Shown here: positions 15,603 through 34,972 of the stretch, piece after piece
Position numbering within the stretch: position 1 is the stretch's first letter
Layout of the letters: every line of letters starts with the position of its first letter
Source: Nitrosopumilus sp.
Lineage (GTDB): Archaea > Thermoproteota > Nitrososphaeria > Nitrososphaerales > Nitrosopumilaceae
DNA: 64,000 nt
Assembly: GCA_965249555.1 (NCBI GenBank)
Contig: OZ252243.1
Span: forward strand, 1,312,001 to 1,376,000
Reading direction: 5' to 3'
The notes under the pieces: generated by a model
What the model saw: only the letters and a program-made list of their open reading frames with translations
Told to the model about the DNA's origin: nothing
The model's database searches: none
Made by a program: the position numbers and the translations under genes

Positions 15603-15664
15603 AATTTTTCTGTTATCCCCTTGTAAAATCAAAAAGATATATGGTTTTGTAAACCACACAATTT

Positions 15665-17157: not shown

Positions 17158-18909
17158 TTAAAATAAACTGTTTGCTAGTTTTTTTAATGCTAGAATATCG
17201 TCTTCTTCATGTCTAATTTTTTTATCAATTACACGAAGCATTGTGTTATTCCAAACATGTTGTGAGAAGAAATTATGTTTTGTATTGGCTAACTCAATTT
17301 CATCATCTACTACAGTATCTTCCAGAAATTTAGTCACAATTACATCTGTTAACTTTAGAATTTTGGAATTAAGTTTGAAACTACGAAAAATAGGCTCTAG
17401 TTTTCTTACATCTACCTTGAAGTCATCTTTTGATTCAAGAATTTTTTTATGTAATATTCTAAAGTAGACTGCTACAAAAAATAATGTTGCATATCTTTTT
17501 GTTTTGTGACCTCCTTGTTTTCCATAATTTAATGATTTTTTTGCATATTCTTTGACAAGATAGGGATATAGCAAAATTCTGTAATCATCTTTCAAATTAT
17601 CATTGAATATGTCATCATATTTTCTTCCTCTTGGAAGAAACTGTGCTGGTGAACTGTACGCTTCAGTTGGTCTTTGTTCAATTCCTGCAACTAGCGATTG
17701 AATCGCATCTTTGGCAACAATGACTTTCTTGTGGTTATCTGGAAGATAGTTGTTGTATATTTCATCTCCTTCATATTCACACTGTTTTGATTTTGATTTT
17801 GTATCAAAGGAACCTGCTTGAATTTCATAAAAGTATCCACAATTTTTTAATTGTGATTTAATTGATTTGTGAAAATCCATCAGTGAAACTAGATCTTTTC
17901 CTCTAACTGAATTTTGAGAATTTCTGTACTTTGTAATATTATTTTGTTCTTGTTCATCATCTGCCTTGATTATTGTAACTGTCATGGAACCTTCCATATT
18001 TTTTGTTCGCTTTGAATGATCAAGAATAGAATTCGATGTTTGTGCACCATTGACAATTTGTGGAGCATGTAATTCAATCAAATTATCTCCCAACTCTACA
18101 AAGTCATTAACTACAATAGTAATTCCGTTATTATAATAGAAAAATTTGCCCGGATTATTTTGTAATGTTTCACGTAAACCTTTGTTGACTGTAGTCTTGA
18201 ATTGCATCCATTGTCTAATATTTGATTCAAAAACATAATCTTTGTTCTTACTTACAAATTCTGTAATTTCTCGTAACTTTAAAATTCCTAGAATGGTGTT
18301 TTCATGTTTTAGCATTCTTTCCAGTTTAATTGAGGATTTTTTACCTGCTGCAGGTTTTTTAATTCTATCCCATAATTTTTGAATTATTTTCTCACCATCT
18401 ATAATTTCGACAAATTCGTCATCATATTCTACTTTCTGATCTGTAACATAACAACATTTTACCTTGAGATTTTTTTCTTTAATTTTTGTAACAAGCTGAG
18501 CTAGTTCAGGTCTCATTTTTGTAACATCTTTTACAAGTAGTCGTTTAACATCTTCTTTGAATTTGGCAATTGCTTCTAGTGAATGTGATGTACCATATTT
18601 TGACTGGAACAATCTAATTGTATTATCTGAAAAATCTACTGGAAGATATGCATCAATTCCAAGATCGTTTGCTCCATCAACAATTGCATCTGCTGCATCA
18701 TCTTCTGTGGCCTCAAAAACTCGAGTTAACACCCATTGAAGAAAATTATATCCTTTCTCGACATCACTTTTAGCATTTTCAGCATATTCTTGTATACTTC
18801 CCTGAACATTTTCTGCAAATCCTTCTAAAGGAAGACTGGAGTTTTTTTGTACTAGTAGTGTATGTGAACCTGGTATGTATTCTAATAAACCATTTCCATT
18901 TTGAGACAT
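17158..18909 (-). CDS. AIPR family protein with N-terminal Mrr-like nuclease domain
   Basis: DGANDLGIDA..LFQSKY; FESNIR, FFYYNNGITIV, PQIVNGAQTS, NSQN.V..DL. Confidence 0.88.
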   Translation of the reverse strand: MSQNGNGLLEYIPGSHTLLVQKNSSLPLEGFAENVQGSIQEYAENAKSDVEKGYNFLQWVLTRVFEATEDDAADAIVDGANDLGIDAYLPVDFSDNTIRLFQSKYGTSHSLEAIAKFKEDVKRLLVKDVTKMRPELAQLVTKIKEKNLKVKCCYVTDQKVEYDDEFVEIIDGEKIIQKLWDRIKKPAAGKKSSIKLERMLKHENTILGILKLREITEFVSKNKDYVFESNIRQWMQFKTTVNKGLRETLQNNPGKFFYYNNGITIVVNDFVELGDNLIELHAPQIVNGAQTSNSILDHSKRTKNMEGSMTVTIIKADDEQEQNNITKYRNSQNSVRGKDLVSLMDFHKSIKSQLKNCGYFYEIQAGSFDTKSKSKQCEYEGDEIYNNYLPDNHKKVIVAKDAIQSLVAGIEQRPTEAYSSPAQFLPRGRKYDDIFNDNLKDDYRILLYPYLVKEYAKKSLNYGKQGGHKTKRYATLFFVAVYFRILHKKILESKDDFKVDVRKLEPIFRSFKLNSKILKLTDVIVTKFLEDTVVDDEIELANTKHNFFSQHVWNNTMLRVIDKKIRHEEDDILALKKLANSLF

Positions 18910-19076
18910 TTTATTTTTCTAATATGTTATATATTTAGAGAACTTGGTAATTATGTAATTACTATCGTTTATAACAAACTTTACAATAACTACCTAGTTT
19001 ACTATATTCAATGAGTAAATTCAAGATAGTATTCAAAGATGGAGATTCCCATAGTCAAGACCTACCCTAAATTACC

Positions 19077-19423
19077 ATGAAAAAATAATTAAAATAATAA
19101 TCATTCCTGTTTTAGTATTCTTACCTTTTATTATTCCAATTATTATTCACTATGGCCCACTTTGTCATTGGGGTGGAATATATTATAGTAATTTAGATAC
19201 ACTTGGAATATATTTTGGTAATGCATATACACATGGTAGTGTGTATCCTAGTCAAGCGATATTTTATTGTAGCTGGAATATAGAACATTTTATAGCAGAT
19301 TATGAACGTCTTGGGCAGTTTCAGATTTATGGATCTATACTTTTTGCAATTATTATTTTAATTGTTATTGGTTTTCAAAAAATAAAGAAAACAAGGAAAT
19401 ATTCAATGGATAAATGTAACTGA
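19077..19423 (+). pseudogene. 2-TM membrane protein frameshifted in A-tract after ATG
   Basis: ATG-A6-TAA; one extra A gives MKKIIKIIIIPVLVFLPF... continuous with ORF 19241-19423. Confidence 0.55.
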
Positions 19424-20009
19424 TCCAAGATTACCATATGATAAAAATTGTAGTATTTTTATTTGCTTTTACCATATTAGGATTTACAGGTATAGAAGCA
19501 TCAGCTTATTTGTTTGATGATTATATTTTAATGGAGAAAAATAACAACCAGTTGATCTATGTAAATGAAAAATCAGTTGATAAATTAACTGATAGAGGAT
19601 TTGCAAAAAAAACAGCTGACTTTGCTAAAGAATGCAATACAAGATTTATTGAAGACACAAGAGAAGATTCGACACTGAAAATTGGTTCAGATTATCATAT
19701 AACTTCAGATTGTACCATTTCAAAAAATAATAATACATTATGTGTTTTTATAATAAATTCAACTGATACTTGCATACATGAATTCGCAAAGCCAACAAAT
19801 TTGAAAGATTGTAGAATGATTTACAAGATGAATTCTGTTTATTATATGCAAGGTAATTTCCCTCATCCTGATTATCCTGATAATATAAACAATCTATTTC
19901 CATATTTTCATATTTTTTCTAACTATTTTTGTGATATGATACCCGATTATGTAAATTCTGGAAATTATTTTGATGAATGGGATATTATCTTTTCAGACAC
20001 TAAAATTTT

Positions 20010-21451
20010 GTATGTATCAACCTTCACGCACAAATCAATATCATTACACAAAAAGATCTAAGATCAACTAAATCATCATACAAAACATGTCAGGTTGTGG
20101 TCATGAGAAAATCATCATACAGCTACAAGCAGAGATAAAACAACTGCAAGAAAAGTTAAAACAACTACCGCTAATCATAGAAAATCTCATAGAATCAAAC
20201 AAGGAACTGCAAAAAAAGCTGTCATATTATGAGAATGCACACTCTCCGCCATCAAAGAATTCCCTTGAATGGAGAAAGCAAAAAAGACAACACAGACAGC
20301 CAGGCAAATCAAGACGTGGTGGAATAGCAGGACACGTTGGCAAGACACAGAAATTCAGACCAACTAGCACCAAACACCACAGATCAGATGCATGTCCCAA
20401 ATGCGGTAGTGAAAATATTCATCAAACCAAAACCTGCAAAAGGATAATGGTTGAGATTCCTCCACCAACACCCTACGGTATAACTGAGCATGTTTTGAAT
20501 CAATACATCTGCATGGACTGTTCTGATAATTTTCAAACCACGGGAAACCTTCCACTACATGGATGTTTTGATGGTTCAGTGATACGTGAGGTCGTCTCAC
20601 TGTTCTCAAAGAGATTGACATACGATGCTATCAGAACCACACTCTATGAAAGATATGGATTAGAAATCAGCAATACAACCGTACAATCCATTCTTCGCAA
20701 CGGTAGTGTGATGTTAGAGTCATTTTACAATACAATCCACAGCGAAATCGTGACTGAAAATATTCTCGGAATCGATGAGACAGGATTTTCAATTGATGGA
20801 AATACTGGATGGATGTGGGTTGCAAGAAGCAAGACTAGTGCACAGTATGCCTTGGAGTACAGCAGAGGTGCCAATGTTCTAAAAAAGTACTGGAAGAAAT
20901 TCAAAGGAACCCTAGTGTCTGACGGATATGCTCCGTACAGGACAGTATTTTGTGATAACACAAAGCAGAGATGCACTGCACACCTGCAGCGCGATGCCAA
21001 ATATCTGGCAATAAAATCACAGGACAAAAAGGCAAGGATTCTATACGAGAAACTCTCAGATATGCTAGGTCATGCCAGGGTTTGGAGTGTAGGTAATCGT
21101 CATACAAAACGGCGGGAAACGTACAGGGATGATTTACTAAAACAGCTAGACCGTATCATTGCACGATATTTGAAAGGTGATATGGAGATGGTTCAGTTTG
21201 GCAAGAAGCTAAAGACTGCAAGGAACAGCATGTTTACGTTTGTCATGGATGGCGATGTCCCGTCAACTAACAATGATGCAGAGAATTCCATTCGAAAGTG
21301 CGTGATGCAGAGGAATGTTCGCGGGCAGATGAAGAGTGATCAGGGCATGAGGATGATCTCAGTCTTTCTCACATGCTTTGAGACATGGAGAATAAGGGAA
21401 TTGAACATGTTTTCTGAGATGGCAAAATACATCTAAGTGCTTGATTCATAC
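20010..21451 (+). mobile_element. IS66-family insertion sequence (single-ORF, ISBst12-like), 1442 bp
   Basis: Ends GTATGTATCAACC / GCTTGATTCATAC (imperfect TIR); 8-bp TSD AAAATTTT at 20002-20009 and 21452-21459. Confidence 0.93.
20087..21436 (+). CDS. IS66-family DDE transposase
   Basis: Coiled coil, SPPS, CPKCG..C..C zinc finger, IDETG, WMWV, SDGY..Y, QRC.AHL.R, TNNDAE. Confidence 0.93.
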   Translation: MSGCGHEKIIIQLQAEIKQLQEKLKQLPLIIENLIESNKELQKKLSYYENAHSPPSKNSLEWRKQKRQHRQPGKSRRGGIAGHVGKTQKFRPTSTKHHRSDACPKCGSENIHQTKTCKRIMVEIPPPTPYGITEHVLNQYICMDCSDNFQTTGNLPLHGCFDGSVIREVVSLFSKRLTYDAIRTTLYERYGLEISNTTVQSILRNGSVMLESFYNTIHSEIVTENILGIDETGFSIDGNTGWMWVARSKTSAQYALEYSRGANVLKKYWKKFKGTLVSDGYAPYRTVFCDNTKQRCTAHLQRDAKYLAIKSQDKKARILYEKLSDMLGHARVWSVGNRHTKRRETYRDDLLKQLDRIIARYLKGDMEMVQFGKKLKTARNSMFTFVMDGDVPSTNNDAENSIRKCVMQRNVRGQMKSDQGMRMISVFLTCFETWRIRELNMFSEMAKYI

Positions 21452-21924
21452 AAAATTTTTAACTTTTATGATGGAAATCCAAACACTATATTTATACGTG
21501 GTATAGGGATTAATGAGACAAATCCTCCACAACTTTATGGGGTTGTGTATTTTGCTTCAGATGATTATGATTATAAATTTAGTTATTATACTCAGCACAA
21601 ATATTTTTCCACTTCATTCATTTCTGAACAAAAAAAACAATATGATGAATTTAATATTCGTCAACTTGTTTATGATTTCATTAACAACTGCCAACCAATC
21701 ATAAAAAACAATTTTAACTATTGTCAAGAATATTTGGTTAGTGGTGGTTGTCGTGTTATTTCAGAATTACCTAAATATTGTATGGATGAGTACATATTCT
21801 ATAAAAGTGTAAATGATGAGGAATGCCTTGCTCTGTTTTCCTCTTTAGAAACTTTAGATTCTGATCACACTTGGAGTCTAGAAGAGTTTAGAAAATCAAA
21901 ATGTAGATTGTAATAAATGTTAAA

Positions 21925-22164
21925 TTGAAAATATTTTTTTTTATGAAAAAGAAAGATATATTATCTAATCATATGTTACTAACTAATGTAATGTTAAAAA
22001 AATTATATGGTCTTTTTTTAGGACTTTCAGTATTAGGACTAGTACTTGTTGTAACTGGAATGATTATCGATGATCTTACCTTTTGGCTAATAGCTGATAT
22101 AATGTTTATTAGTATATTTGCATCAAGTTCTATAGTATTTGCATATTCTATGCGTAAACAGTAG
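21925..22164 (+). CDS. small 2-TM membrane protein
   Basis: Two hydrophobic helices; true start probably downstream. Confidence 0.55.
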   Translation: MKIFFFMKKKDILSNHMLLTNVMLKKLYGLFLGLSVLGLVLVVTGMIIDDLTFWLIADIMFISIFASSSIVFAYSMRKQ

Positions 22165-22174
22165 AGTTTAAAAA

Positions 22175-22639
22175 TTGAAAAACGTATACCTTGCCAGTCA
22201 TTTAGGATTCATAGAACTTGGTGGAGATAACCTGGTTAAATTTCACAAAGTTTTAGAGAAATTTCATATCTTAGATCCATGGGCTAATCAATATGAAGAA
22301 GAGTTTGATAAATTAGAATCAATCACAGATCTAAAACAGTATAAAATTGAAGCAAAGAAAGTCAATCAAATGATTGGACAAAAAAATGAAGACATGATAA
22401 ATAAATCAGACCTTATGGTTGCAATTCTTGATGGTGTAGATGTGGATAGTGGAGTGGCAGTAGAAATTGGCTATGCATTTTCTAAAATGCCAATCATTGG
22501 GTATAGAAGTGATATTAGAGAGAGTGGCAGCAATATTGCACAAATTGTAAATCTCCAAGTAGAGCATTTTATAGAAAAATCAGGTGGAACCATTGTAAAA
22601 AGTTTATCAGAACTAGAAGAGATTATTAAAAAATATTAA
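22175..22639 (+). CDS. nucleoside 2-deoxyribosyltransferase family protein
   Basis: VYLAS, D.MVAILDG.DVDSG...EIGYA, GYRSD.R. Confidence 0.88.
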   Translation: MKNVYLASHLGFIELGGDNLVKFHKVLEKFHILDPWANQYEEEFDKLESITDLKQYKIEAKKVNQMIGQKNEDMINKSDLMVAILDGVDVDSGVAVEIGYAFSKMPIIGYRSDIRESGSNIAQIVNLQVEHFIEKSGGTIVKSLSELEEIIKKY

Positions 22640-22903
22640 TAAACCAATTATAGAATAATGTCTAATATAATAGCGTCAATATCGCCTCCCATTAGGACAA
22701 GAGATCAAGTTCATATCTAACACATCAAACAAAACAGACACCAAAACTGATCTGTTTTCATCCTATAATGGTTCAATTCAAACTATTTCAACCCCTCATA
22801 GACAATCGAACAGATTTTTCTATATGATAAACACTGATGATTCATCCGTAAAAATAATGATTTTATGAGTAATAAATACAAAAAAACATTTTGTATCTAG
22901 TTT

Positions 22904-23425
22904 TCATTTTCTAATTCTCAATTTTGCTTTTTTTAATGCAATAATTCCTGGTATTATGAAAATTGTTCCAGTACCAATCTGTATCAAACCTCCAATTGAT
23001 CTAATCCAATCAGTTTCTTGCTCAAGATGTTCAAGAGTTAATAGTGATTGAAGACCACTTTCTACCCAAGAAAAACCAAAAAATAACAAAACTCCTGCTG
23101 CAATAATGAACATGTATTTTCTAGGGGGAATTTTTTTTACCCTCAAAATTATATTTGGTACAAGAAATACTAGTGAGATAATCCCTAACATGATTGGTCC
23201 TGAAACAAATATTGAATTATATTTCGAGTATCCATAAAAATCATGTGCGTAACTAGGAGATAAATCTGGATCAAGGTCAATTCCTCCTCCATGTCTCTGG
23301 AATTCTGGTGATTCTGATACTAAATTTATTGAATATATGAAAACAACAAAAGAAATTAGAGTCAAAAAAATAGAAACTGTAATTAAGATTAAAAGATTAA
23401 TTTTCATTTTCTTCAAATAAAACAC
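22904..23425 (-). CDS. 4-TM membrane protein
   Basis: Four hydrophobic segments. Confidence 0.7.
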   Translation of the reverse strand: MFYLKKMKINLLILITVSIFLTLISFVVFIYSINLVSESPEFQRHGGGIDLDPDLSPSYAHDFYGYSKYNSIFVSGPIMLGIISLVFLVPNIILRVKKIPPRKYMFIIAAGVLLFFGFSWVESGLQSLLTLEHLEQETDWIRSIGGLIQIGTGTIFIIPGIIALKKAKLRIRK

Positions 23426-23462
23426 TCATAAAGATTTTGATTCTCCTAAATTGTGGAATAGG

Positions 23463-23548
23463 ATCCATTTTAGAGAATATTCCCGTCATCTACCAAAAGG
23501 CTAGTAATCATAATACTTGGTAAATCGGACAGATATTATGTATTACCT
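23463..23548 (+). repeat. direct repeat copy 1 (putative att arm + core)
   Basis: 23485-23542 matches 34157-34214 at 51/58 positions; weaker similarity extends to 23463/34135. Confidence 0.85.
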
Positions 23549-23636
23549 TCTAATCATATATCGAAAATACCACCAAGATGTTTTGTTTGTAATACATGCG
23601 AACTTGTATTCTTGATAGATAACATCAAGGTAGTTC

Positions 23637-23888
23637 TTGCCCTCTCCTTTTTTATGTTTTAGATTAATTTTAGGATTTATTGGCATTATAATATTTGTTG
23701 TAGGTACAATATTTCTTACAAAAGAACTATTTTTGGATGTGTTTTTGTTCGGTTTAGGTTCTTTTGCTCCTGATATGCCAGGACATCCATCTAATACATT
23801 TATTTTCTTAATGTTTTTTATTTTAAATTTTATTGTTTTATCTTTAATTTCATACAAAATATATTCCAAAAAAATCAAAAAACCTTGA
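23637..23888 (+). CDS. small 2-TM membrane protein (possibly truncated)
   Basis: Two TMs around GSFAPDMPGHP. Confidence 0.5.
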   Translation: MPSPFLCFRLILGFIGIIIFVVGTIFLTKELFLDVFLFGLGSFAPDMPGHPSNTFIFLMFFILNFIVLSLISYKIYSKKIKKP

Positions 23889-24180
23889 TGGGATACAATT
23901 GTCTACCTATAATTTTTTTCCTTAAAAATATAATACAAAAATATCCAAAACATAAGGATAGAGGAACTGGGTAGAGTGAGTGGAATGTTGCAGATGAGGA
24001 TGATAACTATGTAGAGTCTGAAGAACAAAATACAGAACGGGATAAATAGAAAAAGATTAGTAAAGGGGATTTTTAATTACACTAGTATATGAGTTTTACA
24101 AGTATGATTATATCAAGACTAGTTAGTATGGGATTAATTAGCTCATTTGTGTTGGAACGCTAGTTCCAATGTTGGGTTGA

Positions 24181-24327
24181 CTATTTTTTCAAATTTTTTC
24201 TTAGGATATCATTTACAACCTTTGAGAAACTATACGATAAATTTTCATTTTTAATAATTCCAGCTTGAATAATACGTAGTCTTCGTTCATTATCATCATC
24301 AATCATAATTGTAACTCTTCTAACCAT
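24181..24327 (-). CDS. ribbon-helix-helix (CopG-like) small protein, 48 aa
   Basis: MVRRVTIMIDDDNERRLR...SFSKVVNDILRK; alternating beta strand followed by two helices. Confidence 0.7.
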   Translation of the reverse strand: MVRRVTIMIDDDNERRLRIIQAGIIKNENLSYSFSKVVNDILRKNLKK

Positions 24328-24693
24328 ACTAAGAAATTAGTATTGTATTATATAAATAATTTAACCCTACTAGGTGTGAAATCTTAAACTAAACCATGTG
24401 GTATGATACCCTATGAAAGATACCATCAAAATAGTCATGCCTGATGTATAGTTATAGGGCAAAACAAAACATGACCAGGCAGCTCAAAGCCCGATTATCA
24501 TTTTTAAAAAACACTTTACAAGAAACGAGAAAGGACTAAAGATTGGATCATACGCCAGATACGGGCTTTCCCGGATTCCCAAACACTGGCCCCGAGAACT
24601 CAGGAACTGAAAGTCAAAAAAGACATCCCAAATCTGCACCGTACCAATTACAAAAAGATATAAAAACGGACAAATCTGCAAAGTGGTTTAAAC

Positions 24694-24870
24694 ATGGGAA
24701 TCATACATGATAAATACCGAAAAAAAGTTGATACCGCATATGAGATTTTAGGCATTGCAGCTGATGTGGCTCAGCTTGGGCGTGCATTATTACGCAATGA
24801 GATAAAAGGCAAAAAGCAAAACATTACCACTATTATCAAAAAACTAGAAAAGATCAAAAATAGCCTCTAG
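24694..24870 (+). CDS. small hypothetical protein (58 aa)
   Basis: Manually read ORF MGIIHDKYRKKVDTAYEILGIAAD... Confidence 0.4.
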   Translation: MGIIHDKYRKKVDTAYEILGIAADVAQLGRALLRNEIKGKKQNITTIIKKLEKIKNSL

Positions 24871-25005
24871 TTATTATTTCACGCTCAAAATGATTTCTGA
24901 TCGGTCTGTGTTTTTAGGCACAAAACAGCAAATATGTATACACTTTATAAGTAAAACTCTGAAATCTTAGTAACCTTTATAATCTCACTTTTTTTTTACA
25001 AAAAT

Positions 25006-27132
25006 ATGAATAAAGTACTATTCACTGCATTGATTGCAGTAATTGCAATCTCAATGTCATTTGCAAGTGCAGAGGCTCAAGATGCTCCACCTGCCGCACC
25101 CACACTTGAATCAGGAGCAATCACTGAAACAAGCATTGAGATTGAATGGAGTGAAGTGACTGGTGCCTTGGTCTATTCGTTATATAGAAATGGTGAAATC
25201 ATAGCAAGTACCGGTGATACATCATACACTGACAATGGCTTGGATCCTTACACATCTTACACTTATCATGCCTTCTCATCTACCGCTTTACAGCAAAGTG
25301 GCAAATCTGTCAGCCTGACTGTAACTACATCTCCAATCCAAACAGGCTCTTTTAGTGTAACAGTAGATGGTGATGAGGCAACCGTATCATTTACACCACT
25401 AACAGATGGTGATTTCACAATTGGATACGGTGATCTAACAGATACTGTCACCATTGCATCTGGTGATGTAGGTTTAGAATCATCTACTACGGTACAAGTC
25501 GGCTATAATTATGATGGTACAGTCACCCTCTCACTTGATGGTGATGAATTTGGCAGCATACCCATACGCACCGAACCTGCACCTCCTGAACTTAGAGCAG
25601 GAACAATCACTAACACAACTATTGAGATTTTATGGGATGCAGTGGATGGTGCCACAGAATACACTGTGTATAGAGATAATGTCTACCAAGGAAGTCGTGC
25701 TATGCCATTATACCTTGATAATACCATCGCTCCTGGAACTTACACTTATCGTATCGAATCACACAATGATGTTTCCCAGACAAGTGACTCATCTACTTTG
25801 ACTCTATCTACAGCAACCTTTGATGCTCCCCCTGAAACTGATAACACCGATAGTGTAACTCCACCTACTGATAACACCGATAGTGTAACTCCACCTACTG
25901 ATAACACCGATAGTGTAACTCCACCTACTGATGACAACGATAGTGTAACTCCACCTACTGATGACAACGATAGTGTAACTCCACCTACTGATGACAACGA
26001 TAGTGTAACTCCACCTACTGATGACAACGATAGTGTAACTCCACCTACTGATGACAACGATAGTGTAACTCCACCTACTGATGACAACGATAGTGTAACT
26101 CCACCTACTGATGACAACGATAGTGGAGCTGGTGGCATCGCTAGTGTAACTCCTGGAACTGAAACACCAAAGAAAAGTGGTGGCGATTCTAATGAATGGA
26201 AAACAAAGCCAACCTTTGGTAAACATTGGAATAATCAAGCAGTACAACTAGTTGACAACGGCTTTGTCTTTAATGGCATACCATTAACCATTACAGATAA
26301 CTGGCACACTGACTTTGATCTGACTAGCAGCATTATAGGTGAGGACAATACAGTCCACATCAAAGGCTATGCAACAAATGGCCTAAAGTCAGTATCTCTA
26401 TCCCTTGGAGTTCCAGAAATTGGTCTAAAAACAGATGCAGAGTCCCACATTATAGTAAATGTAAATAGAAACTATGCAAGTCCTGCAGGCTATGACATTG
26501 CAGATATAGTCCATGAGCAAAAAGAGGGACTGGTAAATGAGGAGATGACTAGAGTATCCATTGACAAAGTCAAATGTAACATATCAGATACTACAGAGAG
26601 GTGCTTTGATGTTACCATATCATTTGTAATAATGGCACCATTATCCCATGAAGTATTGGCAATTAATGCAGTTGACAAACAACGTTATTCTACTACCACA
26701 TATATCAACGAAGGTGTAGAGTTTGTGGGAGAGTCATTGCTTGCAGCAGCAACTCATGAATTAAAACAAAAGCATGGTAACCAGAATCCATTTGAGACTG
26801 TATCACTAACACAGCAAGACAGACGTTACCAGGTCTGGGAGGACCAATATGGATACATATGGTCACAAAATGACTATGGCACCTGGTTGCAGATTACAAG
26901 ACCTGATATACAACAAAGAGATGATTTGCCAACAAGTGTAATGACTAGAATTCATTCAAACTTTGCAAGCCTGGTAATTGATGAGCAGGATAGGGCAACC
27001 CTGATCTTTGATAGTAAGGCAATTCAGGGAATTCTGGATGAATCATTCTCATATGATATGCCATTAAGGCTGGACAGAGTATCAGATCTCACATTACTGG
27101 AATCACTATCCATACAAGAGATGCTAGCCTAG
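25006..27132 (+). CDS. secreted fibronectin type III protein with Pro/Thr/Asp repeat linker
   Basis: Signal peptide; two Fn3-like units (IEW..V.GA..Y..YRN, YTD.GL.P...YTY); repeat linker; C-terminal domain. Confidence 0.85.
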   Translation: MNKVLFTALIAVIAISMSFASAEAQDAPPAAPTLESGAITETSIEIEWSEVTGALVYSLYRNGEIIASTGDTSYTDNGLDPYTSYTYHAFSSTALQQSGKSVSLTVTTSPIQTGSFSVTVDGDEATVSFTPLTDGDFTIGYGDLTDTVTIASGDVGLESSTTVQVGYNYDGTVTLSLDGDEFGSIPIRTEPAPPELRAGTITNTTIEILWDAVDGATEYTVYRDNVYQGSRAMPLYLDNTIAPGTYTYRIESHNDVSQTSDSSTLTLSTATFDAPPETDNTDSVTPPTDNTDSVTPPTDNTDSVTPPTDDNDSVTPPTDDNDSVTPPTDDNDSVTPPTDDNDSVTPPTDDNDSVTPPTDDNDSVTPPTDDNDSGAGGIASVTPGTETPKKSGGDSNEWKTKPTFGKHWNNQAVQLVDNGFVFNGIPLTITDNWHTDFDLTSSIIGEDNTVHIKGYATNGLKSVSLSLGVPEIGLKTDAESHIIVNVNRNYASPAGYDIADIVHEQKEGLVNEEMTRVSIDKVKCNISDTTERCFDVTISFVIMAPLSHEVLAINAVDKQRYSTTTYINEGVEFVGESLLAAATHELKQKHGNQNPFETVSLTQQDRRYQVWEDQYGYIWSQNDYGTWLQITRPDIQQRDDLPTSVMTRIHSNFASLVIDEQDRATLIFDSKAIQGILDESFSYDMPLRLDRVSDLTLLESLSIQEMLA
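25837..26125 (+). repeat. 30-bp coding tandem repeat (~9.6 units)
   Basis: 3x TDNTDSVTPP then 6 full + 1 partial TDDNDSVTPP. Confidence 0.95.
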
Positions 27133-27288
27133 GAAATGCTGGATTAATTAAAGTAGAAAAATAATACATTAAATTATTAAACTCGTTGTAAAGTCTGTAT
27201 TCTGGTATGGCTACAAGATAGTTCCCATATTCAAAGTTCTAACATTCTTCTTGTAAGATTAATATGGTATTATATATTCTACAAAACA

Positions 27289-27507
27289 ATGGCAAACTAT
27301 GATTCTATAAAGTCCAGTGTTGAAAAAAACGGTGAATTAATGATCCGTTTGGATAATGGTGATAAAATCGAACTCCATAAACACAATGTCACCTTTGATG
27401 ACTCTACAAAAGAGATAATTGTAGATGCAGGAACAGAAAAAATTTGGATTCCTGCTGACAAGGTAGCATATTACTGGCTACACAAAGAAGGATTCAAAAA
27501 AGAATAA
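27289..27507 (+). CDS. small beta-rich hypothetical protein
   Basis: 72-aa ORF with T-rich terminator-like tail. Confidence 0.7.
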   Translation: MANYDSIKSSVEKNGELMIRLDNGDKIELHKHNVTFDDSTKEIIVDAGTEKIWIPADKVAYYWLHKEGFKKE

Positions 27508-28003
27508 CTCTTTTATTTTTATCAACTGACATTCAAAACAACCTATAGCTGATTCTGATGATCCAATAGATGATATTTTATCCTCTGATGGTATAGGACC
27601 AGTTGGTGTTACTGATGAGTTAAATCAAGCTCATTCAGATATTATAATATCAACTATACAATCAGATACATATGTAGATGAAGCAAAATAATTTTGTAAT
27701 GTTTATTAAAAAATGAATACTAATAATGTTAGGTTTCAGTTAAGATAAGCACTACTGTGCTAATCTCTCTTTTAATTTCTCTAAAGCAAGAAATAGTGAA
27801 AGATCTGATTACGTTTGAGTTAATATTGGCTCTGAATAATAATTAGATATTACACCTTTTTTTATTTTTTTGAAGGGTACTGTTGGGTTATGGAGACCTC
27901 ATTATATATTTCACGGTTCAATGATGGATAAAGAACAAAAAATGTCACAACTGAAATTACAAATGCTAAAGGTATATCCAACATTGATTTAGGATTTGAA
28001 TAA

Positions 28004-28426
28004 ATGGAATCTTTGCATAAAGTAACTCTAAAGTGTACTCTAAGATGTTTGCTTGGTTGTAACATTGGTGAAGTAATAGGCATGATAATTGGTTCGTTAC
28101 TAAGTTTAGATTTTATTTCAACTATAATTCTAGCAGTGGGACTGGCATTTATCACAGGTTATATTTTTACAATTGTGCCTCTGCTAAAAAAAATGTCTAT
28201 ATGACAAGCAGTAAAGGTTTCAATATTGGGAGATACTGCAAGCATTACAGCAATGGAAACTGCTGAAAATTCCATAGTATTTGTAATTCCTGGATTTATG
28301 GTGGCATCTTTGTTTGATTCTATCTTCTGGATTGGACTAGCAATAATGTTGCCATTTGGATTCCTAGCATCATATCCAGTTATGTATTGGGTAATGAAAT
28401 GAGATATGGGATGTAAACGAAAGTAA
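28004..28426 (+). pseudogene. DUF4396-like membrane protein with two in-frame TGA
   Basis: TLRCLLGC.IGE, DTASI.AME..EN, FW..L, YP; TGA at 28202-28204 and 28400-28402. Confidence 0.75.
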
Positions 28427-28618
28427 TTATTAATTATAATTAAATAACCATATTTTCATACCTATTCATGGATATAGAAAAAAATTTAGATTCAATTCTA
28501 GACAAATTACCTAAATAATAATAACTAGTTTCTATAAACCTAAAAATATCTCACATGATATTTACATAAAAATAGCAAAAGAATTATAAATTTGGCAATA
28601 TTGGATAATAATTAAATT

Positions 28619-28804
28619 ATGTCAAAAAACAGGAAAACAGAAACTAAAAATCAACATGAAGAAAAATTAGATGAAATATTATTAATGTTTATAGATGATG
28701 AAATGGATTATGATATTTCTCACAATGAAATTATTCAGATTATAATAAATCACACACAAAATGCAATTAATAAAGTACAAGAAATTAGAAAGGAAATGGA
28801 TTAG
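28619..28804 (+). CDS. small acidic hypothetical protein
   Basis: 61-aa ORF. Confidence 0.45.
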   Translation: MSKNRKTETKNQHEEKLDEILLMFIDDEMDYDISHNEIIQIIINHTQNAINKVQEIRKEMD

Positions 28805-28857
28805 CTTCCCAATTATTGATGTGTGAATTAGGAATCTGATTAAGGAAAAATTACATG

Positions 28858-30839
28858 TCACGGTTTAAGTTTGAAAATAATTGTTGACTCTATCCCAATA
28901 AGACCAATTATGGGTATTATAACATATTGAATTTCGAAATTAGGAATCGAATTTAATCCTAGATAAAACACAATATCCACAACAATAGAACCAATTATTG
29001 CAAGAATCACATATTTGAAACTAGATTTTATCTTAATGGATTCTCCTTCAGTTTTTGTTTTATCATCAGAAAGTTTTTGTATCATCTGATTTAATTCATC
29101 AATAGTAGTTTGCATTTTACCCATTTCTTTTTTATGTTCACTAGACGTATCATCTATTTTTTTATCAAAGTCTTCTTGAATTAATTCAAGCCCTTTTTTC
29201 ATCATTGGTTCGAATTTTGCTAAGGATATTTCTTCACCTTTATCAAGGGATTCTCGCATTTCTAATAGGTGTTCTTTTATGAAATCATTTCCAATAATTA
29301 TTTCTAAATGCTTTTGATCAATACCCTCTGTATTCCAAAAAATGGATAGTAGATTAGATAAATCTTCTAATGGTATTTTATGTGATTTAAAATTACTACT
29401 TAATAATTTTGTAAATGCAATGCTTCTGTTATTGATAGTAGTTTCTGGAGCTACAAATGGTGAGATCATCTGAAGCCAAATTTCGGGAGTAACACTTGCA
29501 TAAATAAAATCTTGACCATATCTGCCACGTTCAGCTCTTGGAAGACCATAATCAGTAGTCAATAACCATGTTTTATGTCCAGTAACATCAGGTTTATTAT
29601 CACGTAATTTATGAACTCGTAAAATATTGTAAGCATCATGATTGACTAGTTCAGAATTTTTATATATACCGAAATTTAAAATCTGTGTTTTTAGTCGTAA
29701 TGCATCTTCATCTTCTAAATCAATATCTTTGTCAAGTTCTTCTAAAATTATGTTATACTTACTATCCATCAGACTTTTAAATTCCTGATAACGTTTGTAA
29801 AATGTCTCCATAGTTAATTTAGGATTTTTTAATAGTTCATGAGAATATGTGCTTAAAAACTGACTCGTCTTTTGTGCATTTTTATAAGTAGATGTAAATT
29901 TAGGATTGACCCGAAAATTGTTATATTTTCTTTTTGAGTTCTCTATAGAACTTTCAAATTCTATAGCAGTTTTTTCAGTTATTAGAATTTGAGCTCCTAA
30001 ATTCTGTGTTTCTGCAATGATAGTTTCAATTGTATTGTGTGATGTACTATCTTCAAAAATCAAATCCATGAATGTGTTAGTATCTAAATAGATGTATTTT
30101 TTTGCCCATGCATCTTTTTGAAAACTTTGTAAATCAGGATCAAGATTTAAAATTTTAAAATAAACATAACTCTGGGCTCTTGAAAATAAATATATTGAAA
30201 CCTTTTCATCAGGGTTTCCAAAGTATTCATTAAAAAATTTATCAAGATCATCTCTAAGATCTTCAGATATTATACTCAGAAGTGTATTTTGATAAATTTC
30301 TTGAAAACCCTTTTGTTTTTTTAATTCAGTAAGTTTATGCATTCCTTCTGTTAAAATTCGAGCTGACGTAGTACCATATCTTGCAAAAGTAGTTCCTAAA
30401 AGAATAGATAATTTTTCTAAAATCAATTCACATTGCTGTGTTGAAATCGAAGGAATTTTTTCATGTAGCGACTTTAAAATATCATCTTTTATCTGGTTTT
30501 CAAGATCACGTGTTTCTTTTAGACTTTTTTTAATTTCATTACGCTTAACTTGTGAAATATCAAGTTTCTGATTTATTATAGAAAGTACACCAGCCTCAGT
30601 CAGATTATCAATTGCATTTTTTAAATGTAAATCTGGAATTTTAGTAATGTTATAATCTGTTTCTAAATGATTTTTCAAGTCATCATAACTGTGTTTTCAT
30701 TATCACCATGTTCAAAAATTGTCGTGGACACCATATGTTCATAAAGTTCTGTTCGAATATCCGTAGTTTTTCTACTTAGAACAAACTGTTGTAATTCCAG
30801 TAATCGTTGTTTGTTAATTACTTCATTGTTCAAATCCAA
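28858..30839 (-). pseudogene. PIN-domain protein with coiled coil and two C-terminal TMs; frameshift near 30695
   Basis: YLDTN, T..EF, HDA, WLLTTD acidic tetrad; upstream frame from TTG 30839 joins main ORF with +1 nt in GAAAAC run; 606-aa ORF 28858-30678 remains open. Confidence 0.65.
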
Positions 30840-30930
30840 TGCTATTGTTCTAGAACAACATTATAAAAGAATATGAAGATATAAGATTAAAGAAAAAAAG
30901 TGAGGTCAAGATTGCAATTCATGTAATACC

Positions 30931-31782
30931 CTAGATGGCAATCTCACATATTTCAATCCATCCAGATTTCTTTGTTTTAAAAATTGTATTTTTCCCAGTC
31001 CTTTGTTTTTCCATGTCTTGAAGTGAAAAAGTGTTTAAAATAGTGCCATTTATTTTATCCATATAAAATTGGATTGTATCAGTATCGTATCTCATTACAG
31101 GTACATCACATTGCTCTTTTATGATATCAAAAATTCTATCTGCTATGTATACTCGATTTTTAGCGATGTGTTTTTGTTTTACTAGATATTCAAGTATTAT
31201 GAAATTATGTCTAGTTTGTGTCTTAAATAAACTAACCAAATCAAATAGATTTTTTTCATCAAGATAATATGATATTCCCTCAAAAATTAAAATTGTTGGC
31301 TCTAATTTTTTCCAACCTTGTTTTAAAAGTGAGTTAAATACACTAGCTGGGTTTTGTAGATTAATATCTAAACAATGTATGTGGTTGGATAATTTGCTAT
31401 CTGTTTTTCTTATGAGCTTGTTTTTTAGTAGCATGTTTGATTTGTCTATTTCATAAATTTGCAGATTTTTTATCTTTGATGATAATTCAATGGATAATAC
31501 ATCCATTCCAGAGCCAAAAATAACAATTTGCGAAACTTTGCTTTTTCTAATAATTTCAAGTGTCATATTAATAATACATTTTTTTCTATTCTTTATGACC
31601 GTATCATAAGTTGGCCATATTTTTTTGCAACTAGTAAATAGTTTATTGCCTGGTGTTAAGTCCAATAACTTTAGATATTTTTGAGAGTTCTTTGTTGTAT
31701 GAATTGTATTTTTTGCAAATAATAATACTAGAGCTGATGTCTCAGATAGATTATTCAAAGTTGATTTTAATATCATCACCAA
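30931..31782 (-). CDS. LCM-type SAM-dependent methyltransferase
   Basis: SETS, QIVIFGSGMD, YEID, LIFEGISYYL. Confidence 0.85.
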   Translation of the reverse strand: MVMILKSTLNNLSETSALVLLFAKNTIHTTKNSQKYLKLLDLTPGNKLFTSCKKIWPTYDTVIKNRKKCIINMTLEIIRKSKVSQIVIFGSGMDVLSIELSSKIKNLQIYEIDKSNMLLKNKLIRKTDSKLSNHIHCLDINLQNPASVFNSLLKQGWKKLEPTILIFEGISYYLDEKNLFDLVSLFKTQTRHNFIILEYLVKQKHIAKNRVYIADRIFDIIKEQCDVPVMRYDTDTIQFYMDKINGTILNTFSLQDMEKQRTGKNTIFKTKKSGWIEICEIAI

Positions 31783-31874
31783 AAATAATTACCCATATCA
31801 TAAATTTCTATGCTAAAAAATATGTTCATTTTTTACTAAATACATATATAGAATAATTTTATCATATATTCATA

Positions 31875-33134
31875 TTGATATCACGAAAATCAACAATTTT
31901 AATTGTTTTGGGTATAATATCTGCAACCGTACTAGTACAAATTATTACATCTGATTCTTCACAAATAGAATCCCAGCTAGTTGATGAAATTAAAATTGGC
32001 TCTATAATACCATTAACTGGGGATCTATCAAGTTATGGAGAAGAGACATCCATTGCAGCAAAACTAGCTGTTACTGATTTTAACTCATTCCTAAAAGAAA
32101 TGGATGCGCCATGGCACCTTACAATGGTAACTGAGGATTCAGCTACTAATCCTGTAATTGCACTAGAAAAACTAACATCACTTTATGCTAAAGGGATAGG
32201 GACAGTTGTTGGTCCTGAGACTAGCTCTAATATTTCACACGTAAAGGGGTATGCAGAGTCAAATAATATGCTACTAATATCATGCTGCTCTACTGCTCCA
32301 TCCCTTGCAATCCCTAATGATAGTGTATATCGTTTGGTTCCAAATGATTCTAATCACGCAAACGTCTTGGCAAAACTTGCACAAAAAGAATCAATCAAAG
32401 TTATAATTCCAGTGTATAGGGGAGATTCCTGGGGTGATGGACTAGTCAAAGCCATTAATGAGTCCTTTACAGGTCTTGGTGGTACAGTTGATGAGGGAGT
32501 CAGGTATAATCCAGAAACCCCGGAATTTTCTGCATCAACTTCATTACTTGCTGAGAAAGTCAATACCCTGCTATTACATTATGATAAAAAGAATATAGCA
32601 ATTATACTAATCAGCTTTGGTGAAGGATTACACTTTATGCAATCAGCATCACAGCATGACACACTAAGTACAATTCAATGGTTTGGAACTGATGGTAATG
32701 CACTAGAGCCTGCAATTGTAGAGGACCCGATAGGTATGGAATTTTCAAATGCTGTGAATTTTACTGCAGTGCTGTTTGCAGTATCAGATAATGATAAAAA
32801 TATGCATGTAAAAAACCACTTGATTGATACACTTGGGCGAGTCCCTGTTGTTTATGCATATTCTGCATATGATGCAGTGTGGTTGATTGGATTATCAATG
32901 ATTGAATCTCAAAGCAGTGATGTTACTGAAATTAAAGCAGTACTACCAGAGGTTGCCAGTAGATATGATGGCGCACTAGGTGAAATAACCCTTAATGATG
33001 CAGGAGATCTAGCATCATCTGATTATGAAATCTATAAAGTAATTGGTGATGAGTGGGTGTTAATATCATTGTATGGTAATGAAGCAGATGAGTTTGTATC
33101 AGTGTATGGTGTGGATTATTCTCACACAGAGTAA
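31875..33134 (+). CDS. LivJ/LivK-type ABC substrate-binding protein
   Basis: N-terminal anchor; IKIG.IIPLTGDLS..G, GPETS, STAPSL, YSAYDAVW, G.I.LN..GD. Confidence 0.88.
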   Translation: MISRKSTILIVLGIISATVLVQIITSDSSQIESQLVDEIKIGSIIPLTGDLSSYGEETSIAAKLAVTDFNSFLKEMDAPWHLTMVTEDSATNPVIALEKLTSLYAKGIGTVVGPETSSNISHVKGYAESNNMLLISCCSTAPSLAIPNDSVYRLVPNDSNHANVLAKLAQKESIKVIIPVYRGDSWGDGLVKAINESFTGLGGTVDEGVRYNPETPEFSASTSLLAEKVNTLLLHYDKKNIAIILISFGEGLHFMQSASQHDTLSTIQWFGTDGNALEPAIVEDPIGMEFSNAVNFTAVLFAVSDNDKNMHVKNHLIDTLGRVPVVYAYSAYDAVWLIGLSMIESQSSDVTEIKAVLPEVASRYDGALGEITLNDAGDLASSDYEIYKVIGDEWVLISLYGNEADEFVSVYGVDYSHTE

Positions 33135-33324
33135 ATAGGAAACGATGCAATTAAAACACTAAATGCGCGCTCTTTTATGGTTACATATATCGTTCATGAT
33201 ATGATTAATGAGATAGAATTTACTCCAAATGAGCAAACTCAATATATCAATACTTTTTCTGAAATGTTTGACTTGTATGGTTCAATAACAGGTGGTGGGA
33301 TTTGGCCTGAACCATATACATTTG

Positions 33325-33720
33325 ATGAGAAAAAGTCAAAGTCTAGTTTCTTTTGGGCTCAGGACCAGTTCTTGTGCAAGTCAATGCCAACATACATGCA
33401 CTTGTCTTTTTTTGCCCTAATCTGTTTCTTTGGACTTTTCTTGGAATACGATGGATTACGAGTCCTGGATCTGGGTTCATTTCCTATGCTATCTGAATTC
33501 CTTCTTTTGGTATTCACATATAGTTATCAAGCATTTTGGATGCATTTCATCATCTCAGAAAACATGCCCAATCCCTTGGTTCTCCGTGCCTCAAGGCATG
33601 CAAGAAAGACGGAGATCATCCTCATGCCCTGATTTGTGCGTGAAGGTTGATACATACAGTATGGCACAACAGAAATCTTTAAACAATTATAAATCCACAT
33701 CTAAGCGATTGAATATGAGA
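33325..33720 (-). mobile_element. internally deleted IS110-family remnant
   Basis: Minus-strand MYVGIDLHK (33371-33397) then immediate stop; ATGAGA at both junctions (33325-33330, 33715-33720); TTGAC near right end. Confidence 0.65.
33520..33657 (-). mobile_element. 138-bp MITE-like derivative of the IS66 element
   Basis: First 28 nt identical to IS left end (20010-20037), joined at ATCA to a diverged copy of the last ~113 nt of the IS. Confidence 0.88.
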
Positions 33721-33854
33721 CAAAGCATTCAGTTAGTAGAAGATGGCGGGTTTGGGAAATACCAAAAAGGCGAGAACGACATAGCATGTACATACAATAA
33801 TGCCGATCTAGCAGAGAAAGCAATGTTAAAATTCATTAAAAAAATAGCCAATAA

Positions 33855-34121
33855 GTGAACTACAAAGTTTCCCTTTCTAATATTTTTAAAGAACAATTAA
33901 AACAAATTGCAGAGTTTGACACTTTTACCAATTCCAAAAAAGTTAGTAAGAATCCAAAACAAACTCTCAAAGATTTAGAAAAAATGGAAAAATTAGGAAT
34001 AACCATACACACCACTAAGATTAAATCAGATGTATATGGAACAAAGTACACTGTGGTGTATAAAGTGACAAAGAATCAACAGAAAAAATTAACAGCAAAA
34101 AAAATAATCAGGCATAAATAA
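33855..34121 (+). CDS. RelE/ParE-like small basic protein
   Basis: YKVSLS..FK.QLK.I N-terminus and Y.VVYKV...L..K.I.H C-terminus pattern. Confidence 0.45.
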   Translation: MNYKVSLSNIFKEQLKQIAEFDTFTNSKKVSKNPKQTLKDLEKMEKLGITIHTTKIKSDVYGTKYTVVYKVTKNQQKKLTAKKIIRHK

Positions 34122-34134
34122 TAATAAAATAATA

Positions 34135-34220
34135 ATCCCTTTTACTCAATATTTTTGTCATCTACCAAAAGGTTAGTAATCAAAATACTTGGTAAAACCG
34201 CCAATTATTATGTAATAACT
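34135..34220 (+). repeat. direct repeat copy 2 (putative att arm + core)
   Basis: Same orientation, 10672 bp from copy 1. Confidence 0.85.
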
Positions 34221-34241
34221 CTGTTCTGGATGTGATGTGAT

Positions 34242-34640
34242 TTGTTAAAAAAAATAATTGGAATAGGCATAACTGGAATAGTAGTTCTTGTAACTATTGC
34301 ATTACTGTTTTCAAACAATTCAATTGAAGATCCAGAACCCTTTGTTAAAGGTGATGTGATAATGCCAACAAAAGTTTCTCGCCCAGGATGTGAAGAAACT
34401 GATAGATGTTACATTCCCTCTCTAATTGTAATTGAAAAAGGAAAACAAGTAACATGGGTAAATGAAGATTCAGCGTTTCATAGTATTACTTCAGGTTTTT
34501 ACGATACACCAACTGATCTTTTTGACAGTGGGCATTTAGATCCATTTGAATCCTATACCCTTACTTTTGATGAAACAGGCACATTTGATTATTTTTGTAC
34601 TCTTCATCCTTGGATGAAAGGACAAGTAGTTGTTGAATAA
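34242..34640 (+). CDS. blue (type 1) copper/plastocyanin-like protein
   Basis: W.N.D...H, YFCTLHPWM copper ligands; N-terminal anchor. Confidence 0.92.
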   Translation: MLKKIIGIGITGIVVLVTIALLFSNNSIEDPEPFVKGDVIMPTKVSRPGCEETDRCYIPSLIVIEKGKQVTWVNEDSAFHSITSGFYDTPTDLFDSGHLDPFESYTLTFDETGTFDYFCTLHPWMKGQVVVE

Positions 34641-34711
34641 GGTACCCGAGGGAGTCGAACCCCCTTGTATAGGCTTTGCAGGCCCACGCATAACCGTTCT
34701 GCCAGAGTACC
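34640..34711 (-). tRNA. tRNA-Cys(GCA)
   Basis: GGTACTC/GGGTACC acceptor, TGGGC-CTGCAAA-GCCTA anticodon arm, TTCGACT T-loop. Confidence 0.95.
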
Positions 34712-34750
34712 GTTTTAAAAAACACAAAATGAATAATTAAACTCTTCAGA

Positions 34751-34972
34751 TTAGAATTTGTTAAATGGTTTTGAGGCCAACTTTACGTCTTCACCTTTTA
34801 TCGTTTTTCTACCTGCATGAGAAGCCATATCCACTGCACTTTTTGCAATGCCATCGGCCAGTTCTTCAACCACCCTTCTTAATTCATTTGCTGATTCGTC
34901 ACTAACTCTCTCAGCTCCTGCTTTCTTCAAAATTCTATACATGGCAGATAATCCTAATTCTGACGATTTCAT
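34751..34972 (-). CDS. archaeal histone
   Basis: RILKKAGAERVS, HAGRKTIK.ED. Confidence 0.93.
   Translation of the reverse strand: MKSSELGLSAMYRILKKAGAERVSDESANELRRVVEELADGIAKSAVDMASHAGRKTIKGEDVKLASKPFNKF

Follow-up and report, generated by a model that had tools for sequence, protein, structure and literature searches.

A recurrently used insertion site upstream of a cupredoxin gene in Nitrosopumilus, holding what look like the decayed remains of two integrated mobile elements

How did 15 kb of DNA come to lie between two genes that adjoin one another in nearly all relatives of the same genus? The question is raised by a window of 64,000 nucleotides (bases 1,312,001-1,376,000) in a single-contig, 2.23-Mb Nitrosopumilus genome with 34% G+C. 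In this window, an island of 15,257 bp (positions 18960-34216) is inserted at GGTAATTATGTAATAAC, between a gene for an AIPR/AbiU-like protein and a gene for a cupredoxin, which are divergent and have the core of the insertion site between them. A preliminary description of this DNA had noticed that a short core with an adjoining arm is repeated in the island, and had proposed that an attachment (att) site between the two genes captured two modules in series, which were mobilised in trans by a recombinase encoded elsewhere. Here, a comparison with other species confirms the insertion and its exact site, and leads us to a partly different view of its origin: the site is probably a tyrosine-recombinase hotspot overlapping the cupredoxin promoter, and would here hold tandem, integrase-less remnants ridden with insertion sequences (IS).

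We searched 150 genomes of species in the genus with the left and right flanks of the island and tallied the outcome by hand from the coordinates; earlier searches covered a 60-genome subset. The left flank (17900-18963, 1064 bases that comprise the 5' part of the AIPR gene and the spacer to the core) was matched in 129 of the 150 genomes at E<=1e-60, and a partly deleted copy in G055 was counted besides. Twelve genomes could not be placed, as their flanks were on different contigs or the right flank was not listed. In the 118 placeable genomes, the flanks are adjacent in 111, with an offset of 0 to about 100 nt, and interrupted in seven. Each of the 27 adjacent sites that were read contains one copy of TATATATTTAGAGAA-NNN-GGTAATTATGTAATAACTCT (G163 was also read and is ambiguous), and the exact 17-mer GGTAATTATGTAATAAC is present in 20 of the 23 sites of one reading set. 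The direct repeat TTATGTAAT, found at 18951-18959 and again at 34208-34216, is a single copy in all 27 of these empty sites, and the AIPR and cupredoxin genes flank the site in every genome read. Because the sites of the relatives are empty and single-copy, 18960-34216 is an insertion at a fixed and strongly conserved intergenic site. The preliminary description had predicted that an empty site would read ...GAACTTGGTA-ATTATGTAAT-AACTCTG...; this joint is found exactly in the closest relative (G097, flanks 95% identical), which is empty and reads GAACTTGGTAATTATGTAATAACTCTG, and with one to three changes in 26 further relatives. None of the 27 empty sites that were read has a recombinase beside it. 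The DNA of the island was not found at the site or in syntenic position in G007 and G063, nor in three empty-site genomes that were searched.

The seven interrupted relatives carry unrelated DNA of 1.1 to 22.6 kb at the same core, plus one interval of 138 kb (Table 1), and in all seven the breakpoints lie in the core, as would be expected of the att site that had been postulated between the two genes. Imperfect direct repeats of the core, 8-17 bp long and mismatched at their edges, flank every one of the inserts. The cargo that was read in these islands is unrelated to that of the island studied here: surface proteins, a lipoxygenase-like gene, a peroxiredoxin and an MFS transporter in G063; MgtC-like, CorA-like and truncated dehydrogenase-like genes in G042, as judged by eye from the translations; two small ORFs (open reading frames) without known function in G086; and a truncated DDE_Tnp_4 gene in G165. 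The ORFs of the island in G007 include one of 2,697 amino acids, and just past its right junction there are an integrase, transposase-like ORFs and a long repeat protein. For G007 and G077, the junction sequences alone were used. In G007, the closest complete relative, the left flank, the 21.6-kb island, an extra cupredoxin/tRNA-Cys copy and the integrase are part of a large, near-perfect inverted duplication (1804848-1880668), which may be a genuine palindrome or may have been created in the assembly.

Direct repeats around every insert might also be target-site duplications, left by casposon-like or DDE transposons with a strong target preference. The target duplications of casposons are 14-15 bp long. 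The 8-17-bp repeats and the truncated transposase gene in G165 are in line with such an origin, and casposons occur in Nitrosopumilus according to the parts of PMC6563490 consulted here. However, the repeats are of variable length with imperfect edges, the island, its two modules and the G042 insert all lack terminal inverted repeats, and neither Cas1 nor polymerase B was found among the Pfam-scanned ORFs. The lone transposase in the island belongs to an IS that is delimited by ends of its own (20010 and 21451). Repeats of variable length and imperfect edges without terminal inverted repeats are, from their sequences, best read as attL and attR formed from partly homologous sites and not as a transposase target duplication, and we consider transposition highly improbable.

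The island has three cores, all in the same orientation, of which the middle and right ones are joined by an arm. The sequence is ...TTGGTA-ATTATGTAAT-TAC at the left junction, arm-ATTATGTATT-ACC at the middle one and arm-ATTATGTAAT-AAC at the right one, where AAC is the chromosomal continuation of all empty sites. The arm-plus-core segments at 23485-23542 and 34157-34214 are direct repeats with 51 of 58 bases identical and a weaker leftward extension from 23463/34135 (15 of 22), and a repeat search aligned 23463-23548 with 34135-34220 at 81% identity (70/86). A degenerate pattern of 34 nt derived from the repeat is found twice in the window and in none of 100 shuffles. Both copies contain an inverted TACCAA...TTGGTA pair and end in ATTATGTA(A/T)T; ATTATGTAAT is also present at 18950-18959, preceded by CTTGGTA, TACCTAG is found at 18991 and CACCAAG at 23571, and the palindromes GTAATTA-TG-TAATTAC and TTATTA-TG-TAATAA are both there. 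The repeats, motifs, palindromes and coordinates of the preliminary description are all present as it listed them. The bare 10-mer ATTATGTAAT is not significant in the window, where two copies are seen against 0.64 expected and 11 of 100 shuffles reach two, nor is it in the genome, with 22 copies against about 21 expected. The 10-mer has meaning solely through the comparison with relatives. The first of the palindromes is the near-perfect dyad formed by attL. At the empty site, the corresponding dyad GTAATTA-TG-TAATAAC matches at six of seven positions, and attL of this genome and of G042 complete it to a perfect one.

On the explanation that we favour, GGTAATTATGTAATAAC would be the chromosomal attB for site-specific, most likely tyrosine-recombinase, integrative elements of Nitrosopumilus, and the arm (86-105 nt) would be the element-derived P arm of attP beside the shared core. 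In this genome, G042 and G086, attL reads AAT-TAC and attR reads AAT-AAC, and the middle copy here reads TAT-TAC. Because G042 and G086 share the TAC/AAC asymmetry, strand exchange can be placed provisionally inside TTATGTA(AT). The expected outcome would be chromosome-core-element at the left junction, element-core-element in the middle and element-core-chromosome at the right. The middle copy has element sequence on both sides, which suggests two serial integrations, with inserts of 4.6 kb and 10.7 kb in tandem that would have lost their integrases and later been entered by insertion sequences. The two modules in series of the preliminary description agree with this arrangement, as the left and middle cores have an element-type right side (TAC) and the right core a chromosome-type one (AAC).

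The same structure might have arisen by a single integration of 15.3 kb, the middle arm being a later nested insertion or the result of recombination with another arm locus. Arm copy A, in the middle, is nearer to two copies elsewhere in the genome, C and D (88%), than to copy B at the right junction (81%), and the modules are alike in G+C content (0.321 for module 1 vs 0.325 for module 2, with no contrast to the flanks either). Moreover, at the fifth copy of the arm, near 1,792,761 in the genome, a B-like arm and a core are followed by a sequence that is like the far left end of the island (TACTAT-TTGTTTA-AC vs TACTATCGTTTATAAC). Such a joint is expected of a circle of the whole island and hints at a possible fossil of one, by a short match in A+T-rich DNA. 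Against a single event, the middle copy has a full arm, a core, an element-type right side and the orientation of the outer sites, just as tandem integration would produce, and there is no duplicated flanking DNA with it. We therefore regard a single integration as quite unlikely.

The arm is present in this genome in four full copies and one cut copy. The core of copy C is cut by the end of an IS5-like element and lies at an inversion breakpoint relative to G007, and copy D is located 1.7 kb inside a 60-kb region that is absent from G007. Several large rearrangements separate this genome from G007, near 553016, 1380868, 2018221 and 2042850, with one breakpoint at copy C and an IS66 fragment. 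In other species, this type of arm is found at the right junction of the same site in G007 and G077. One search showed it in one of 40 relatives and not in the other 39, and a search of the five nearest relatives did not find it; the site is empty in four of these (G097, G105, G141, G161) and occupied by another insert in the fifth (G104). The pattern AATAYTTGGTAA-N9-13-ATTATGTAAT identified G007 and G077 among the species genomes, with one further match that had no extended similarity; one viral and 18 metagenome matches to the same pattern also had no extended similarity and were chance-like. Elsewhere in this genome, at 66358 and 2029669, the same palindromic core (GTAATTA-TG/CA-TAAT[T/A]AC) is adjoined by an unrelated sequence of about 85 nt, whose two copies are inverted relative to one another. 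This pair may be a second arm family or an inversion scar. Searches for structure in the arm were negative: Rfam gave no match at E<=1 near either arm copy in the window, and no significant or common fold was obtained for either strand, with z-scores of -0.06 to -1.90 and differing results for copies A and B.

It has to be asked whether the arm and core are instead a native promoter or operator of a regulon, unconnected to gene gain. An ortholog alignment of the upstream region places the core 26-37 nt upstream of the TTG start of the cupredoxin gene, where the TATA box would probably lie if the transcript is leaderless; the conservation of the intergenic region is high, and the inverted repeat in the arm resembles the type bound by transcription factors. 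Yet a gene lies downstream of copy B alone, with none at A, C and D, none of the 27 empty sites read has the arm upstream of the cupredoxin gene, and it was found in just two other species. Because it is missing at the empty sites and limited to this genome and G007/G077, the arm was brought by the inserts and does not belong to the native cupredoxin promoter or to a regulon operator, and there is very little to recommend the regulon explanation. The preliminary description had allowed that breakpoints in relatives might be unrelated to the cores, or that the repeat might be a promoter of unrelated native genes. The breakpoints follow the core, and the arm is not such a promoter.

No integrase was found in the window, in agreement with the preliminary description. 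The five PF00589 (Phage_integrase) matches of the genome are outside it, at 187, 417, 559, 649 and 1485 kb, and tblastn with three integrases, taken from relatives and from this genome, gave nothing in the island at E<=10. Integrases are also lacking from the inserts of at least five of the eight interrupted genomes (this genome, G042, G086, G165 and the read parts of G104). In G063, a stop-broken PF00589 match (E 7.7e-8) that reads inward is located 357 bp inside attL. Integrases of the same family are encoded inside the G077 interval (535 amino acids) and past the extra cupredoxin/tRNA-Cys copy in G007 (360 amino acids). Their closest homologue here is an intact gene for 312 amino acids (1,485,121-1,486,059), which has 30% identity to the G007 protein (E 3e-40). 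It sits in an 18.1-kb element (1473129-1491215) beside tRNA-Gly, which is bounded by the 13-bp sequence ATTAAACTGTTTT and absent from five relatives. A 3.9-kb piece of this element, including the integrase gene, is 95% identical in G052, the flanks of which are 85-89% identical. Elements of this integrase-bearing kind are thus present in the lineage and have recently been mobile. The right arm of the 18.1-kb element contains a TTGGTA/TACCAA inverted pair near its core. We considered this pair as a shared integrase-binding box and rejected it, as it shows no genome-wide enrichment (25 vs about 18 expected, by a hand estimate).

Several observations weigh against serial integration of tyrosine-recombinase elements that later decayed. 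There is no integrase or remnant of one in this island; three other inserts, of 1.1-3.5 kb, also lack one, so that repeated decay to tiny att-flanked remnants is required; and G042, a 99%-complete genome, has no PF00589 match above the family cut-off. No test ties any recombinase to the core. The four arm copies are preceded by unrelated DNA, and on the element side the sequences that follow the cores have little in common except TAC, so that the modules are not demonstrably one element family, and neither module has been seen as a unit elsewhere. Among the other interrupted genomes, the G077 interval includes core-genome DNA (the tRNA-Gly locus) and is therefore at least partly a rearrangement and not an insert, and the inverted duplication around the G007 island may, as noted, be an assembly artefact.

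Some of these observations would fit a platform served in trans, in which small integrase-less modules with an arm, captured as such and not decayed from larger elements, are stacked by a recombinase encoded elsewhere, be it the integrase of a resident element or an enzyme of the host. An integrase is missing from at least five of the eight inserts, three of these five being just 1.1-3.5 kb long with clean core repeats, the arm copies with their unrelated upstream DNA look portable, and this genome encodes elsewhere an intact member of the integrase family that occurs in the G063 island, in an element whose arm shares the TTGGTA/TACCAA pair, a weak hint in view of the counts given above. However, no recombinase lies beside the site in the 27 empty sites read, the core of the resident element, ATTAAACTGTTTT, differs, and G042 carries its insert without a PF00589 match above the cut-off. 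Furthermore, the G063 insert came with its own integrase, and the arm of this genome does not resemble those of G063, G042, G086 and G165. We judge such a platform unlikely. Doubtful to the same degree is the broader idea of an archaeal cassette accretion, in which the conserved promoter core would be a docking site for small modules without integrase, each with TACCAA/TTGGTA boxes in an arm beside the core. A recombinase from elsewhere in the cell, or a passing element, would insert and stack these modules and might excise them as composites. The mobilisation in trans of the preliminary description may occur but finds no support in these data, and the cassette system distinct from known ones that it envisaged is not needed, given the decayed integrase beside attL in G063 and features that have been published for archaea.

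The preliminary description had also named a XerA-like enzyme, which would make the site a dimer-resolution (dif) site, exploited by integrase-less elements through the host Xer recombinase. The site is single-copy and conserved with a partial dyad of 6/7, and integrase-less stacking is typical of such elements in bacteria. A XerA-like recombinase is nevertheless disfavoured. The site does not have the 11-6-11 layout, the best 11-nt arms matching at 8/11 with other spacers, and it is not at the terminus: it is 322 kb from the only Cdc6 gene and from the cumulative GC-skew maximum (1.01 Mb), and the minimum of the skew, which was taken to mark the terminus, is far from the site, near position 0 of the 2.23-Mb genome. 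The tyrosine recombinases of the genome also look element-type by eye, and exploitation of Xer has only a slight chance of being correct.

We also looked for excised forms. Four public runs, available as assembled contigs, contain the island, of which three are from one study, very deep and probably from the source culture, and one is from a second study. Among these contigs, which drop rare forms, none joined 18960 to 34216, 23545 to 34216 or 18960 to 23545, and none went back from 34207 to 18950 or 23535. The sole backward joint in the contigs (36500 to 23918) coincides with a 33-nt repeat. On balance, serial integration of tyrosine-recombinase elements, followed by loss of their integrases, remains the probable explanation; the class of the recombinase, the tandem order of events, the overlap with the TATA box and the status of the island as a stranded remnant rather than an active element are suggested by the patterns described above.

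Table 1. Coordinates of the island, its att sites and flanking genes, of further arm copies in the genome, and of inserts at the same core in relatives. Positions refer to the window unless marked as genome positions; a slash marks the start of element-side (attL) or chromosome-side (attR) sequence.
Feature	Position or length	Strand	Evidence or junction
tRNA-Thr	15133-15206		
AIPR/AbiU-like gene, 583 aa, left flank	17158-18909	-	Pfam AIPR 1.1e-58; PADLOC AbiU 1.2e-45
attL: chromosomal arm CTTGGTA, core ATTATGTAAT, first element bases TAC	18943-18962	+	sequence read; left-flank homology of relatives stops at 18963
Module 1, 4,585 bp core to core	18960-23462		Pfam; absent at site in relatives
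IS66-family IS (transposase 20087-21436)	20010-21451	+	Pfam DDE_Tnp_IS66 5e-41
Nucleoside 2-deoxyribosyltransferase-like gene, module 1	22175-22639		Pfam
Membrane protein, module 1	22904-23425	-	
Arm copy A, core variant ATTATGTATT, then ACC; junction between modules, P-core-P' type	23463-23548	+	repeat match and sequence reading
Module 2, 10,672 bp core to core	23549-34113		Pfam/NCBIfam
IS debris: 157-nt dispersed repeat and internally deleted IS66-family remnant (both ends, no body)	33369-33660		many genome-wide BLAST matches
attR: arm copy B, core ATTATGTAAT, chromosomal AACT	34114-34220	+	right-flank homology of relatives begins at 34221 or earlier
Cupredoxin (plastocyanin-like) gene, right flank	34242-34640	+	Pfam Copper-bind 1.8e-08; TTG start
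tRNA-Cys, adjoins cupredoxin gene	34640-34711	-	ARAGORN and Rfam
Arm copy C	genome 2,043,417-2,043,513	-	
Arm copy D	genome 492,286-492,392	-	
Fifth arm copy, diverged, cut by IS5-like element	genome 1,792,761		
Insert in G063	22.6 kb		attL GGTAATTATGTAATAAC/CTAGCC; attR AGGTATTATGTAATAAC/TTAG
Insert in G007	21.6 kb		ATTATGTAATAACT at both ends
Insert in G042	3.48 kb		attL GGTAATTATGTAAT/TACC; attR TAATTATGTAAT/AACC
Insert in G086	1.10 kb		attL TTATGTAAT/TAC; attR CTATGTAAT/AAC
Insert in G165	1.39 kb		ATTATGTAATAA at both ends
Insert in G104	at least 4.4 kb over two contigs		junctions read
Interval in G077 (= G157)	138 kb		

The contents of the island (Table 1) are heterogeneous, and neither module was found as a unit elsewhere. 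Besides the two annotated genes, module 1 contains ORFs without known function and the IS66-family IS, which is about 1,442 bp long, has more than 25 copies at 90-100% identity genome-wide, and is a secondary invader of the module. Three of its copies are in tandem near 2.203-2.207 Mb. Module 2 encodes a secreted repeat protein of 708 amino acids with weak fn3 matches, a 606-aa protein without known function, an LCM-type methyltransferase and a periplasmic binding protein, and contains an internally deleted IS66-family derivative at 33525-33658. In a search of 27140-33368 against the 150 relatives, module 2 gave paralogue-level matches and one 2-kb piece, at 92% identity, in G055. The ORF for the 708-aa protein has ten tandem repeats of 30 nt (25777-26190), its last 1 kb or so (26106-27141) recurs at about ten other loci of the genome at 92-94% identity, and long arrays similar to its middle part are found near 3-46 kb and 510-525 kb of the genome. 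Together, these sequences make up a large family of repeat-bearing secreted proteins. PADLOC accepted a single defence match in the window, the flanking AIPR/AbiU gene. A Csn2 match to the methyltransferase of module 2 (E 6.6e-4) was weak and was dismissed.

The position of the AIPR/AbiU-like gene is kept genus-wide, and the right flank continues with the cupredoxin gene, tRNA-Cys, TatD and ribosomal protein S17e. Neither tRNA-Thr nor tRNA-Cys is duplicated at the ends of the island, as the preliminary description had said. In G042, G048, G094, G129 and others, 1-9 kb separate the cupredoxin/tRNA-Cys match from the TatD match at the tRNA-Cys to TatD spacer (34640-34760), and this region is a second, separate insertion hotspot in some relatives, about 0.4 kb (430 bp) from the hotspot at the core. 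On the other side of the AIPR gene, G052 has about 29 kb inserted near 15633-15648, 430 nt past tRNA-Thr. A 16-nt overlap between the two flank matches there hints at a further short att site. Farther along the window, at 59761-60215, a 33-nt unit is repeated 13 times in tandem with up to 99% identity.

For Nitrosopumilus, these results define a recurrent non-tRNA hotspot to the base, at a near-invariant 17-bp sequence in a promoter region that is empty in 111 genomes and interrupted in 8, this one included. It could serve as a tractable archaeal recombination system, with a known attB, several natural attL/attR pairs, an attP-like candidate fossil and candidate integrases in the same genome, and as a marker of flexible-gene traffic in marine ammonia oxidisers. 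Because most inserts have no integrase and some are about 1 kb long, trans-mobilised archaeal mini-elements are a live question. If true, cassette accretion would be the archaeal counterpart of the cis-mobilisable elements (CIMEs) of bacteria, and each insertion would re-supply the upstream half of the cupredoxin promoter. Our literature search, which had the supplementary site table of PMC6563490 outside its scope, identified no publication on this site or on archaeal cis-mobilisable elements, and a cupredoxin promoter is not among the targets in the main-text passages of that paper that were covered.

Compared with bacterial systems, the island resembles streptococcal CIMEs and the accretion of integrative and conjugative elements: it has att sites on both sides, an internal att site and no recombination genes, and the composite could in principle excise. 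CIMEs are, however, tied to conjugative elements with a known trans-acting integrase, and there are candidate integrases alone here. With tRNA-linked additive islands it shares a fixed hotspot, direct repeats between blocks of cargo and the frequent loss of integrases, although the repeated unit is a promoter-region core with an element-borne arm and not a tRNA fragment. Similar to integrons (attI, attC and IntI), the modules are stacked, promoter-proximal and end in a recombination site with an inverted repeat. Unlike in integrons, no integrase lies beside the platform, the modules are multi-gene with genes in both orientations, and the arms do not have a stable conserved fold. Elements that exploit Xer at dif (integrative mobile elements exploiting Xer, IMEX), such as the CTX phage arrays, are also integrase-less, stackable inserts at a conserved dyad-like site. 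The site described here differs from theirs in that it lacks the dif architecture, given as 11-6-11 in the parts of PMC8371274 that were covered, and is not at the terminus.

The closest parallels are found in the archaea themselves, in the covered parts of two publications. In the definition of Krupovic et al. (2019, PMC6563490), the conserved gene of the cryptic integrated elements of Thaumarchaeota is an integrase, which is absent from this island. In other respects, the island is like these elements and their tandem arrays. The att sites reported there are 8-26 bp long with a median of 17, compared with 8-17 here, 15 of 68 integrations are intergenic, integration was validated by empty sites in relatives, and arrays arise through re-use of one site (PMC6563490). 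The cargo of surface proteins, transporters and methyltransferases is likewise similar. Furthermore, integrated archaeal elements without an integrase, which was presumably lost, and tandem integration have both been described (PMC8371274). In this company, the island has the look of two mobile elements that integrated site-specifically and have since decayed, and they are of a kind that is already known.

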